A stretch of DNA of 64,000 bases, taken from Escherichia coli (GTDB lineage: Bacteria; Pseudomonadota; Gammaproteobacteria; Enterobacterales; Enterobacteriaceae). How positions within the stretch are numbered: the stretch's first letter is position 1; every line of letters begins with the position of its first letter. The DNA lies in NCBI RefSeq assembly GCF_009931435.1, contig NZ_CP043414.1; one strand, 5' to 3'. Made by a program: the position numbers and the translations under genes. The notes under the pieces are model-generated. The model worked only from the letters and a program-made list of their open reading frames with translations. It was not told the origin of the DNA and did no database searches. Shown piece after piece: positions 13,871 to 31,925 of the stretch.

Positions 13871-15631
13871 TTGACCATTACGAAACTTGCATGGCGTGAC
13901 CTGGTTCCTGATACCGATAGCTATCAGGAAATATTTGCTCAGCCACATTTGATTGACGAAAACGATCCTTTATTCAGTGATACTCAACCGCGACTGCAAT
14001 TTGCGCTGGAGCAGTTGCTGCATACGCGAGCATCCTCCTCTTTTATGCTGGCGAAGGCCCCGGAAGAGTCTGAGTATCTGAATCTTATTGCCGATGCCGC
14101 GCGTGCGCTACAAAGCGATGCAGGCCAACTGGTGGGCGGTCACTATGAGGTTTCCGGCCACACCATCCGCTTACGTAACGCAGTGAGTGCAGATGATAAT
14201 TTTGCGACTTTAACGCAAGTTGTCGCTGCCGACTGGGTAGAAGCGGAACAACTCTTTGGCTGCCTGCGCCAGTTTAATGGTGACATTACCCTGCAGCCAG
14301 GTCTGGTGCATCAGGCAAATGGCGGTATTCTCATCATCTCTTTGCGTACACTGCTGGCGCAACCTCTGCTGTGGATGCGGCTGAAAAATATCGTTAACCG
14401 CGAGCGTTTTGACTGGGTTGCGTTTGATGAGTCCCGCCCTCTCCCCGTCTCTGTGCCTTCGATGCCATTGAAGCTGAAAGTCATTCTGGTAGGCGAACGC
14501 GAATCATTAGCTGATTTCCAGGAGATGGAACCAGAGCTTTCAGAGCAGGCTATTTATAGCGAATTTGAAGACACTCTGCAGATTGTCGATGCGGAGTCAG
14601 TAAGCCAGTGGTGTCGCTGGGTGACATTGGCCGCCAGACATAATCACTTACCTGCACCGGGAGCGGATGCCTGGCCGGTACTTATCCGCGAAGCAGCACG
14701 CTACACCGGTGAACAAGAAACACTTCCGCTTAGCCCGCAGTGGATCCTCCGCCAGTGTAAAGAGGTCGCCTCCCTGTGCGATGGCGACACCTTCTCCGGC
14801 GAGCAGCTAAACTTAATGCTGCAGCAGCGTGAATGGCGTGAAGGTTTCCTCGCTGAACGCATGCAGGATGAGATCCTTCAGGAGCAAATCCTGATTGAAA
14901 CCGAAGGCGAACGCATCGGGCAAATTAACGCCCTTTCGGTCATTGAATTTCCGGGTCATCCGCGCGCTTTTGGCGAACCTTCTCGCATTAGCTGCGTTGT
15001 ACATATTGGCGATGGTGAATTCACTGACATCGAACGCAAAGCGGAGCTTGGCGGCAATATCCATGCGAAAGGGATGATGATCATGCAGGCGTTCCTGATG
15101 TCGGAACTTCAGCTTGAGCAACAGATCCCCTTCTCAGCATCGCTGACATTTGAGCAGTCATATAGCGAAGTGGATGGCGATAGTGCCTCAATGGCTGAAC
15201 TCTGCGCCCTGATAAGCGCCCTCGCCGATGTGCCGGTGAATCAGAGTATTGCTATCACAGGTTCAGTCGATCAATTCGGTCGCGCCCAGCCAGTCGGTGG
15301 TTTAAATGAGAAAATCGAAGGCTTCTTTGCTATTTGCCAGCAACGTGAGTTAACGGGGAAACAAGGTGTCATTATCCCCACTGCTAACGTTCGCCATTTA
15401 AGTCTTCACAGTGAACTGGTGAAAGCGGTAGAAGAAGGCAAATTCACCATCTGGGCAGTAGACGATGTGACTGACGCACTGCCGTTATTATTAAATCTGG
15501 TGTGGGATGGCGAAGGCCAAACGACGCTGATGCAAACCATCCAGGAACGTATCGCGCAAGCATCGCAACAGGAAGGACGTCACCGTTTTCCATGGCCATT
15601 ACGTTGGCTGAACTGGTTTATTCCGAACTGA
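13871..15631 (+). CDS. ycbZ: Lon-like protease YcbZ
   Basis: 586-aa ORF starting at a TTG codon; recognised as YcbZ. Confidence 0.88.
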
Positions 15632-15661
15632 TCGGACTTGTTCAGCGTACACGTGTTAGCT
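15626..15661. promoter_or_regulatory. fabA operator region: FadR site (aactgatcggacttgtt) and adjacent FabR palindrome (agcgtacacgtgttagct)
   Basis: Sequence matches the fabA FadR site as I recall it. It overlaps the ycbZ stop codon and sits about 40-75 nt upstream of the fabA ATG. Confidence 0.7.
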
Positions 15662-15699
15662 ATCCTGCGTGCTTCAATAAAATAAGGCTTACAGAGAAC

Positions 15700-16218
15700 A
15701 TGGTAGATAAACGCGAATCCTATACAAAAGAAGACCTTCTTGCCTCTGGTCGCGGTGAACTGTTTGGCGCTAAAGGCCCGCAATTGCCAGCACCGAACAT
15801 GCTGATGATGGACCGTGTCGTCAAAATGACCGAAACGGGGGGGAACTTCGACAAAGGGTATGTTGAAGCAGAACTGGATATCAATCCGGATCTGTGGTTC
15901 TTCGGATGCCACTTCATTGGCGATCCGGTTATGCCGGGATGCCTGGGCCTGGACGCAATGTGGCAGCTGGTAGGGTTCTACCTCGGCTGGCTGGGCGGCG
16001 AAGGTAAAGGCCGCGCACTGGGTGTTGGCGAAGTGAAATTCACTGGTCAGGTTCTGCCGACAGCGAAAAAAGTGACCTACCGTATTCACTTTAAACGCAT
16101 TGTTAATCGTCGTCTGATTATGGGTCTGGCAGATGGCGAAGTGCTGGTTGATGGTCGTCTGATCTATACCGCCAGCGACCTGAAAGTCGGTCTGTTCCAG
16201 GATACGTCTGCCTTCTGA
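15700..16218 (+). CDS. fabA: 3-hydroxydecanoyl-ACP dehydratase/isomerase
   Basis: 172 aa from [19 protein letters not shown]...; the track ORF has a 66-aa 5' extension. Confidence 0.95.
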
Positions 16219-16246
16219 TTGAAATCAGACAGAGTATAAAAAGGCG

Positions 16247-16278
16247 AAACCTCCGCATTGCGGAGGTTTCTTTTTAAA
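16247..16278. terminator. bidirectional terminator between fabA and rmf
   Basis: Hairpin cctccgc-att-gcggagg flanked by T/A runs on both strands. Confidence 0.75.
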
Positions 16279-16287
16279 GAGACAGAA

Positions 16288-16455
16288 TCAGGCCATTACT
16301 ACCCTGTCCGCCATGGCTTCTCGCCAGCCTCCCAGCCATTGTGACCTTTGATTCAGCGTCTGATAGGGACACATTTCTTTTGAGCGTCCGGCGATGCCGG
16401 CCTGATAACCACGTTGATGTGCCCGTTCCAGGCGATCTCGTTTTTGTCTCTTCAT
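16288..16455 (-). CDS. rmf: ribosome modulation factor
   Basis: 55-aa ORF read from the reverse complement (MKRQKRDRLERAHQRGYQAGIAGRSKEMCPYQ...). It is missed by the 60-aa ORF track, and the listed 16274..16471 ORF is a different frame. Confidence 0.9.
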   Translation of the reverse strand: MKRQKRDRLERAHQRGYQAGIAGRSKEMCPYQTLNQRSQWLGGWREAMADRVVMA

Positions 16456-16710
16456 GCCTCGTTTCCCTCATACTGGTTTCTGGTGGAAAAGAAAACAGTG
16501 ATTACTAAATGTGCAATCACAGTTAAGCAATACCGCGAATCATAACTGCCGTCAATGCGCAAAATTCACGCCACTGTCATATTTGTGAGCTACACGGGCA
16601 TGTCGGTTGTACAAAAAATGTGAAGAGGAACAACTTTTTCCGCACGTTAGAAACAAAAAAACCGCCTCAGGCTACATACCGGAGACGGTCATATTTACAA
16701 ATCTTTATAA

Positions 16711-26245: not shown

Positions 26246-27256
26246 TTAGATATGGGTAACGATTTCTTTAATCAGCGGCGGTCCTTTAAAAATAAAACCA
26301 GAATAAATTTGCACCAGTGAGGCCCCCGCAGCAATCTTTTCACGCGCAGCGATAACCGAGTCAATGCCGCCAACACCGATGATCGGTAAGCGACCGTTTA
26401 ATTCCTGAGACAAACGGCGAATAATTTCGGTGCTTTTTAACTGTAGCGGACGACCACTTAAGCCACCGGTTTGATCACAATTTTTCATTCCCTGAACCAG
26501 AGAACGATCGAGCGTGGTATTGGTTGCAATAACGCCATCAATATTATGGCGAACTAAACTATCGGCAACCTGGATCAATTCTTCTTCAGAAAGATCCGGC
26601 GCGATCTTCACGGCGATCGGCACATATTTATGGTGCATCGCTTGCAAATCATTTTGCTTATTTTTAATCGCGGTTAAGAGATCATCCAGCGCTTCGCCAT
26701 ATTGCAGTGTGCGTAATCCTGGGGTATTCGGCGATGAAATATTGATGGCGATATATCCCGCATAGGCATAGATTTTTTCCATACAAATCAGATAGTCATC
26801 TTTACCCTGCTCCACCGGCGTATCTTTATTTTTGCCGATATTAATCCCCAGAACACCATCGTAATGAGCTTTTTTTACGTTCTCAACGAGGTTATCAACG
26901 CCGAGATTATTAAAGCCCATACGGTTGATCAAACCTTCGGCATCTACCAGACGAAAGAGACGCGGCTTGTCATTACCTGGCTGTGGACGTGGCGTGACGG
27001 TACCGATCTCGATAGATCCAAACCCCATCGCGCCTAACGCGTCAATGCACTCCCCGTCTTTATCAAGACCGGCTGCCAGACCAAGCGGATTTTTAAACGT
27101 CAGGCCCATGCAGTTAACAGGTTTCGCAGGCACTTTCTGCCGCACCAGTGCTTCAAACGGTGTTCCTGTAATACGGCGTAATTGCTGAAAAGTAAACTCA
27201 TGAGCGCGCTCTGGATCGAGCTGGAAAAGGGCTTTACGAACGAAGGGGTAGTACAT
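26246..27256 (-). CDS. pyrD: dihydroorotate dehydrogenase (quinone)
   Basis: 336 aa from [21 protein letters not shown]...; the track ORF has a 9-aa extension. Confidence 0.95.
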
Positions 27257-27492
27257 GAACTCTCCTGGATTCCCGGTGTGCAAACCGGGGGCGTATTATG
27301 TGCGAGTTCGGACCAAAAGGGAATTGACCTACGGCAATAAATAGCAAACGTTTTCTTATTGCGCTTTTTTTATGCTTTTTTTGGCTTTGCTTCGTCAGAT
27401 AAATCATTTCGACTCGCGGACGCCCTCTGTCAGACTGACCAAATTGTTATCAATTTTAACAAAACAAGAACAATTGGTTATAAGGAGAGAGT

Positions 27493-31729: not shown

Positions 31730-31925
31730 ATGCCGGATGTGGCGCACAAAAACAGCGGTTTCAACGGATTGTAGGCCTGATAAGACGCGTCAAGCGTCGC
31801 ATCAGGCATTTGGGCACGGCTGCCGGATGCGGCGTGAACGCCTTATCCAGCCTACAAAACCAGCATTTTCAACGGACTTGTAGGCCTGATAAGACGCGTC
31901 AAGCGTCGCATCCGGCATTTGGGCT
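31730..31925. repeat. REP/BIME cluster: three REP palindromes in alternating orientation, with an about 55-bp imperfect direct repeat
   Basis: taggcctgataagacgcgtcaagcgtcgcatcaggca (31771-31807), gccggatgcggcgtgaacgccttatccagcctac (31821-31854), and a second gcctgataagacgcgtcaagcgtcgcatccggc copy (31879-31914). Confidence 0.85.

Follow-up and report, generated by a model that had tools for sequence, protein, structure and literature searches.

The junction of ycbZ and fabA in Escherichia coli raises the question of how the end of one gene and the control region of the next can share the same nucleotides, and which of the two determines the sequence of the other. The window analyzed in this study, i.e., the whole stretch of 64,000 nucleotides, contains the following features at this junction:

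13871–15631, plus strand: ycbZ coding sequence including the stop codon, from the open reading frame and E. coli annotation; putative Lon-like protease of 586 aa
~15413–15497, plus strand: CpxR footprint and acid-induced start S3 of fabA, converted from the PMC7083825 numbering; both within ycbZ
15626–15642, plus strand: FadR activator box, AACTGATCGGACTTGTT; single exact match, identity to a gel-shift probe, conservation
15629–15631, plus strand: ycbZ stop codon TGA, from the open reading frame; shared by 45 of 56 species with an intact box
15638–15643, plus strand: putative −35 element TTGTTC in the right half of the FadR box; TTG kept in 65 of 68 species
15644–15661, plus strand: FabR repressor palindrome, AGCGTACACGTGTTAGCT; palindrome search, 17 of 18 FabR motif positions, conservation
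15661–15666, plus strand: putative −10 element TATCCT; TA at positions 1–2 in 68 of 68 species, T at position 6 in 66 of 68
15700–16218, plus strand: fabA coding sequence including the stop codon, from the open reading frame and annotation; 3-hydroxydecanoyl-ACP dehydratase/isomerase
16246–16270, both strands: bidirectional terminator hairpin separating fabA and rmf, from a terminator scan; 11-bp perfect stem with T-runs on both strands

Pfam matches to a LonB-like AAA domain and a Lon_C domain were obtained for YcbZ, and a FabA-like domain was detected in the fabA product (E = 4.8e-53).

A preliminary description of this DNA had placed a FadR-type site 3 nt ahead of the ycbZ stop codon and a FabR-type palindrome directly behind that site, and both placements were confirmed. 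The sequence AACTGATCGGACTTGTT starts at 15626, so that the TGA at 15629–15631, as read from the open reading frame, represents positions 4–6 of the box. The 18-nt imperfect palindrome AGCGTACACGTGTTAGCT, featuring 11-nt arms that are 82% complementary, follows after a linker consisting of a single C (15643). Compared to the 17-bp FadR consensus aaCTGGTCnGACC(T/A)Gtt (PMC9329746), the box contains two mismatches, located at positions 6 and 13, and two mismatches were also counted against the degenerate consensus ANCTGGTCCGAYNTGTT. The palindrome agrees with the 18-bp FabR motif of the AGCGTACACGTGTTCGCT type (PMC4273635) at 17 of the 18 positions, and its location directly 3' of the FadR box, with a 1-nt linker, corresponds to the layout in the fabB probe.

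Taken by themselves, such matches might represent a chance resemblance that is non-functional in the present strain. This reading draws on the finding that, at up to three mismatches, the degenerate FadR consensus was matched three times in the 64-kb window, as compared to 2.4 matches expected, which is the chance level. The significance of the box, therefore, is based on its identity to an experimentally bound sequence and on its conservation, and not on the consensus match within the window. Positions 15617–15671 are letter-identical to fabA_ec-BD, the E. coli fabA probe used in FadR gel-shift experiments, on which its authors marked the site for FadR and a predicted palindrome for FabR (PMC4537474). 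Since the sequence is also that of K-12 MG1655, the operators do not map elsewhere on the characterized fabA promoters, which had been named beforehand as the outcome that would overturn the description. Furthermore, the site was nearly invariant over 26 Enterobacteriaceae species, with variable flanks, and a chance resemblance, refuted by the identity to the bound probe and to K-12, was regarded as extremely unlikely. The stretch was thus interpreted, with a probability of roughly 90%, as the characterized E. coli fabA FadR/FabR control module, with ycbZ ending on the TGA of the FadR box.

The fabA FadR/FabR module is already known, and its operators are textbook examples. Compared to the K-12 fabA promoter, no difference was found: the element is the same, the sequence is identical over 15383–15818, and the fabA ATG (at 15700 in the window) follows the ycbZ stop codon after the same gap of 68 nt. 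That ycbZ ends inside the FadR box can be read from the K-12 annotation coordinates, and no discussion of it was found in the literature searched on fabA control. The region is also uniform within the species, as a 501-nt query (15300–15800) was 100% identical to O145 strains, and of the 5425 complete genomes in which it had a match, 5423 were at least 99% identical. In the same comparison, 4 out of 5428 matching places were located on plasmid-labelled records and 1 out of 5426 genomes was without a match, which is unusual for an essential chromosomal region and may be due to wrongly labelled replicons or faulty assemblies.

[quoted passage not shown] FadR was described as an activator and not as a repressor of this gene (PMC4537474, PMC3462791). 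Three start sites have been reported, namely the FadR-activated S1, the FabR-repressed S2 and the acid- and CpxR-dependent S3, the latter being located 203 nt upstream of the ATG, with a CpxR footprint extending from −287 to −255 relative to the ATG (PMC7083825). Transferred to the window by means of the published numbering only, the footprint was placed at approximately 15413–15445 and S3 at approximately 15497.

No match to the consensus sigma-70 promoter was obtained at fabA in a scan of 15200–16500. Such a match is not expected for a weak, activator-dependent promoter, and the scan does not represent positive evidence. After the consensus scan had drawn a blank, the core promoter was placed by comparing −10 and −35 conservation among 68 species. 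The middle positions of the −10 hexamer were variable, and the pattern TAnnnT was present in 66 of the 68 species. Together with the TTG at −35, this conserved pattern suggests that the FadR box overlaps a weak −35 element, with its centre (15634) probably at about −39 or −40, and that transcription of fabA probably starts near 15673. The FabR palindrome fills the 17-bp spacer between the two putative elements, its last base being the first base of the putative −10. The geometry obtained agrees with previous reports that FadR overlaps the −40 region and FabR the −10 region of the fabA promoter (PMC3462791); the exact positions of the −35, the −10 and the start site are inferred, and the geometry rests on secondary statements in the literature.

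According to the resulting model, ligand-free FadR would bind the 17-bp box at 15626–15642, about 40 bp upstream of the start, and thereby activate fabA, while long-chain acyl-CoA would release FadR from the box. FabR would bind at 15644–15661, in the spacer and touching the −10, and repress fabA. Within this model, sequence identity, conservation and the absence of a terminator originate from the present analysis, and binding, activation, repression and co-transcription were taken from the literature.

Comparison with K-12 MG1655 from ycbZ through the fabA terminator revealed differences at 49 out of 2400 positions, distributed over the preceding 1512 nt of ycbZ (35 differences) and the region after 15818 (14 differences), with none in the 436-nt block 15383–15818. 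Among the 26 Enterobacteriaceae, conservation of third codon positions in the last 250 nt of ycbZ was not elevated (0.50–0.78 bits) and resembled that of the rest of the gene. Since no added synonymous-site constraint was observed at the family level, local shared ancestry or recombination within E. coli is a likelier explanation for the identical block than selection. For the same reason, an additional constraint imposed by the CpxR box and S3 on the whole 3' end of ycbZ was rejected.

To evaluate the conservation of the operators against that of the YcbZ C-terminus, as proposed in the preliminary description, a profile was calculated for the 26 Enterobacteriaceae species, which were picked by taxonomy and not by site. 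Values of 1.98 bits per position for the FadR box and 1.96 bits for the FabR palindrome were obtained, versus 1.04 bits for the four ycbZ codons before the last one; the last 20 ycbZ codons reached 1.30 bits and the 35 nt 3' of the palindrome 1.38 bits. The final ycbZ codon, corresponding to box positions 1–3, was AAC in all 26 species. The four codons ahead of it were among the most variable in the region, as the conserved YcbZ tail ...RWLNWF is followed by IPN, TPN, SAN, NSN, QSN, NHN and others. The proposal that the 3' end of ycbZ is constrained by fabA control therefore holds for the stop codon and the NNC codon preceding it, but does not extend to the four highly variable codons further upstream.

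A broader sample was compiled by means of a search for relatives of FabA, comprising 80 species of the Enterobacterales, Pasteurellales and Vibrionales; all counts given are raw counts in which phylogeny was not factored in. An intact box, defined as the CTGATCGGACTTGTT core with at most two mismatches, was present in 56 species, and in 45 of these the TGA of the box serves as the ycbZ stop codon. These 45 include every sampled member of the Enterobacteriaceae, Yersiniaceae, Hafniaceae and Budviciaceae, the rest being two Pantoea species, one Enterobacterales MAG and Vibrio penaeicida. Their last ycbZ codon was AAC, GGC or AGC and, thus, always NNC. Two Haemophilus species also stop on the box TGA; with four mismatches in the box, they fall outside both the 56 and the 45. 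In the remaining 11 intact-box species, the ycbZ stop codon (TAA in eight, TAG in two and TGA in one) lies 5–55 nt upstream. TAA at the homologous position was detected only in eight Erwiniaceae species, whose boxes are degenerate at several other positions, too, and a box being intact except for CTAATC was never found in the 80-species comparison. The operator thus appeared to be the conserved object, from which the last codon and the stop type of ycbZ follow. The location of the ycbZ end inside the FadR box is real, evolutionarily old and widespread, but ordinary.

The constraint might also act in the reverse direction, i.e., the need of ycbZ for a stop codon might prevent the box from changing from CTGATC to the consensus CTGGTC and leave fabA with a weak site. 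In the window, an A-to-G exchange at 15631 would indeed produce the consensus CTGGTC at the cost of the stop codon, extending YcbZ by 18 codons up to a TAA at 15683–15685. However, the identical CTGATCGGACTTGTT core is carried by the E. coli fabB operator, which represents the same composite module (GGCTGATCGGACTTGTT, C, GGCGTACAAGTGTACGCT). In the fabA operator of Shewanella, where CTGATCGGAGTTGTT precedes a palindrome, the core differs from CTGATCGGACTTGTT by a single C-to-G change. The form shared by these two operators is CTGATCGGA(C/G)TTGTT plus palindrome. E. coli fabB resembles fabA in this arrangement of FadR box, C and palindrome, differing in the first two bases of the box and in a few palindrome positions. 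As the upstream neighbour of fabB is presumably divergent, no coding sequence should enter the fabB box.

Members of the Morganellaceae mostly keep CTGATC with the ycbZ stop codon located 13–25 nt upstream (13–15 nt in Photorhabdus and Morganella). Both Vibrio fluminensis and V. gelatinilyticus end ycbZ 5 nt before the box, the former keeping CTGATC and the latter featuring GTGGTC at the half-site. The module shared by fabB and Shewanella fabA, together with the CTGATC kept by Morganellaceae having an upstream stop codon, indicates that the A creating the TGA belongs to the operator. Given the fabB operator and the loci of Morganellaceae and Vibrio, shaping of the box by the stop codon was rejected; it is largely refuted and was considered very unlikely.

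With the operator being the conserved element, the sequence also discloses what happens to a reading frame running into it. An open reading frame entering the module in frame 1 is stopped at the TGA of the box, and one entering in frame 2 at the TAG within the palindrome sequence GTTAGCT, while frame 3 runs into fabA. Since frames 1 and 2 are both stopped, the module represents a natural backstop for any abutting coding sequence. Selection would, in this model, act on the operator, and ycbZ would run into the module and terminate on the TGA intrinsic to the FadR half-site CTGATC, its last codon and stop codon being passengers.

Detailed inspection of the 80 loci also revealed a second FadR-type palindrome. 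In many Enterobacterales outside the Enterobacteriaceae, the ycbZ codons for N-W-F-N-Q spell a perfect canonical CTGGT-N3-ACCAG palindrome (loci L028, L030, L032, L033, L039, L041, L043, L045, L050, L053, L054, L055, L058 and L061), located approximately 83–127 nt upstream of the fabA ATG and centred 15 bp upstream of the midpoint of the fabA box. The counterpart in the window, at 15613–15625, features the left half only. The distal palindrome CTGGTTYAACCAG is present in Yersinia, Pectobacterium and Pasteurella bettyae, directly adjoining the FabR palindrome in the latter. Brenneria and Pectobacterium, whose proximal box lacks its left half, retain CTGGT-N3-ACCAG in non-coding DNA behind a premature ycbZ stop codon. 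The Asn codons in the distal motif were AAC in 41 out of 42 cases versus 43% AAC elsewhere in the same genes, these being raw counts with phylogeny not factored in. Judging from its sequence, CTGGT-N3-ACCAG may represent a second or alternative FadR operator.

The proximal FadR box has lost its left half in the Pectobacteriaceae (L028, L030, L031, L033 and L047) and the Erwiniaceae (L032, L038, L040, L050, L053, L055, L057 and L065). Brenneria carries ACGTAACAGACTTGC at the homologous place, with near variants in other Pectobacteriaceae, and in the Erwiniaceae this stretch contains TAA and further changes. The FabR palindrome was retained in most members of both families possessing a degraded FadR box. 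These patterns suggest that FadR activation of fabA was lost or relocated in the Pectobacteriaceae and Erwiniaceae.

The order of the two genes was found to be highly stable. Out of the 80 loci (L001–L080), one had too little upstream DNA and one was without a ycbZ homologue, so that fabA is immediately preceded by a co-oriented ycbZ homologue in 78 out of 79 informative species. The distance between the ycbZ stop codon and the fabA ATG amounted to 68 or 69 nt in 26 of 26 Enterobacteriaceae, 67 or 68 nt in the sampled Hafniaceae and Yersiniaceae, and 64–71 nt in Vibrio. The ycbZ–fabA gene order may be locked by the promoter that lies within the ycbZ end.

The remaining question is whether proteins bound to the operators influence the expression of ycbZ itself. 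A terminator scan of 15200–16500 detected no plus-strand terminator between ycbZ and fabA, nor anywhere in 15200–16245, and the first one downstream of ycbZ is the hairpin at 16246–16270. This hairpin separates fabA from the convergent gene rmf (16288–16455, minus strand) and is seemingly a bidirectional terminator. RNA-seq data define a ycbZ–fabA operon (PMC4161252), and, in addition to this published transcript evidence, both genes are located on the plus strand with a 68-nt gap and no terminator before 16246. Owing to the missing intergenic terminator and the published operon, read-through is the default, leaving no ycbZ termination at the operators to be modulated. According to this model, weak ycbZ transcripts would cross the operators, extend over fabA and terminate at the hairpin between fabA and rmf.

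The preliminary description had suggested that repressor occupancy could affect termination of ycbZ or read-through into fabA. No support was obtained for this suggestion, given that FadR is an activator, that a terminator is missing and that the operon had already been published. Translational termination at a stop codon is, to our knowledge, beyond the reach of DNA-bound proteins. RNA folding of 15590–15730 yielded no structure beyond that of shuffled controls (z = −0.44), and a coupling of ycbZ and fabA at the RNA level was dropped for this reason.

A different effect of the bound proteins was also considered. FadR and/or FabR on 15626–15661 could block polymerases arriving from the ycbZ promoters, giving rise to stop-less mRNA, SsrA-tagged YcbZ and less read-through into fabA. 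The geometry is suitable, as the final 6 nt of ycbZ, a co-directional gene without a terminator, lie within the operator, and many lineages have retained the stop-in-box layout. With the box starting 3 nt ahead of the stop codon, blocked ycbZ messages would be non-stop; stalling of polymerases about 10–20 nt before the stop codon, giving a fraction of such messages, was nonetheless judged improbable. A precedent is LacI bound to O3, where the lacI mRNA is truncated and its product acquires an SsrA tag (PMC3711431), and coupled transcription–translation can be blocked by endogenous DNA-binding proteins, GalR being an example (bioRxiv 10.64898/2026.05.06.723219). In both ycbZ/fabA and lacI/O3, a co-directional gene without a terminator has its 3' end overlapped by an operator that serves the promoter downstream. 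However, the protein bound at O3 is the product of the blocked gene, whereas FadR and FabR are unrelated to ycbZ. Moreover, the lacI/O3 block depends on LacI looping between operators, with truncation and tagging having been demonstrated, whereas nothing comparable to the looping is known at fabA, where FadR is an activator.

Further observations argue against such a block. The RNA-seq data describe a continuous ycbZ–fabA operon (PMC4161252), and the CpxR-driven induction of S3, which starts upstream of the operators, persists in a fadR fabR double mutant with no sign of gating (PMC7083825), this being an induction assay and not a measurement of roadblocking. Eleven intact-box species place the ycbZ stop codon 5–55 nt upstream, and conservation of the operator explains the layout more simply. 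Blocking of ycbZ transcription by FadR or FabR was, therefore, considered unlikely. If it occurred, it would tie the YcbZ level and the read-through share of fabA to the acyl-CoA and acyl-ACP pools, connect lipid sensing with a Lon-like protease whose function is unknown, and represent a second natural case of the lacI/O3 type, conserved across the Enterobacterales.

With respect to other RNA features of the window, only two Rfam matches reached the gathering score, namely a PyrD leader at 27251–27324 (minus strand, 97.9 bits) and naRNA4/CssrE at 31774–31852 (minus strand, 82.2 bits), and no tRNA genes were found in the 64 kb.

Returning to the reading preferred here, in which ycbZ ends on the TGA of the fabA FadR box, the overlap touches six nucleotides, determining one codon and the choice of the stop codon, and matters little for the biology of E. 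coli. The comparative result represents an example of a conserved promoter that, acting as a backstop, sets where the upstream gene ends.
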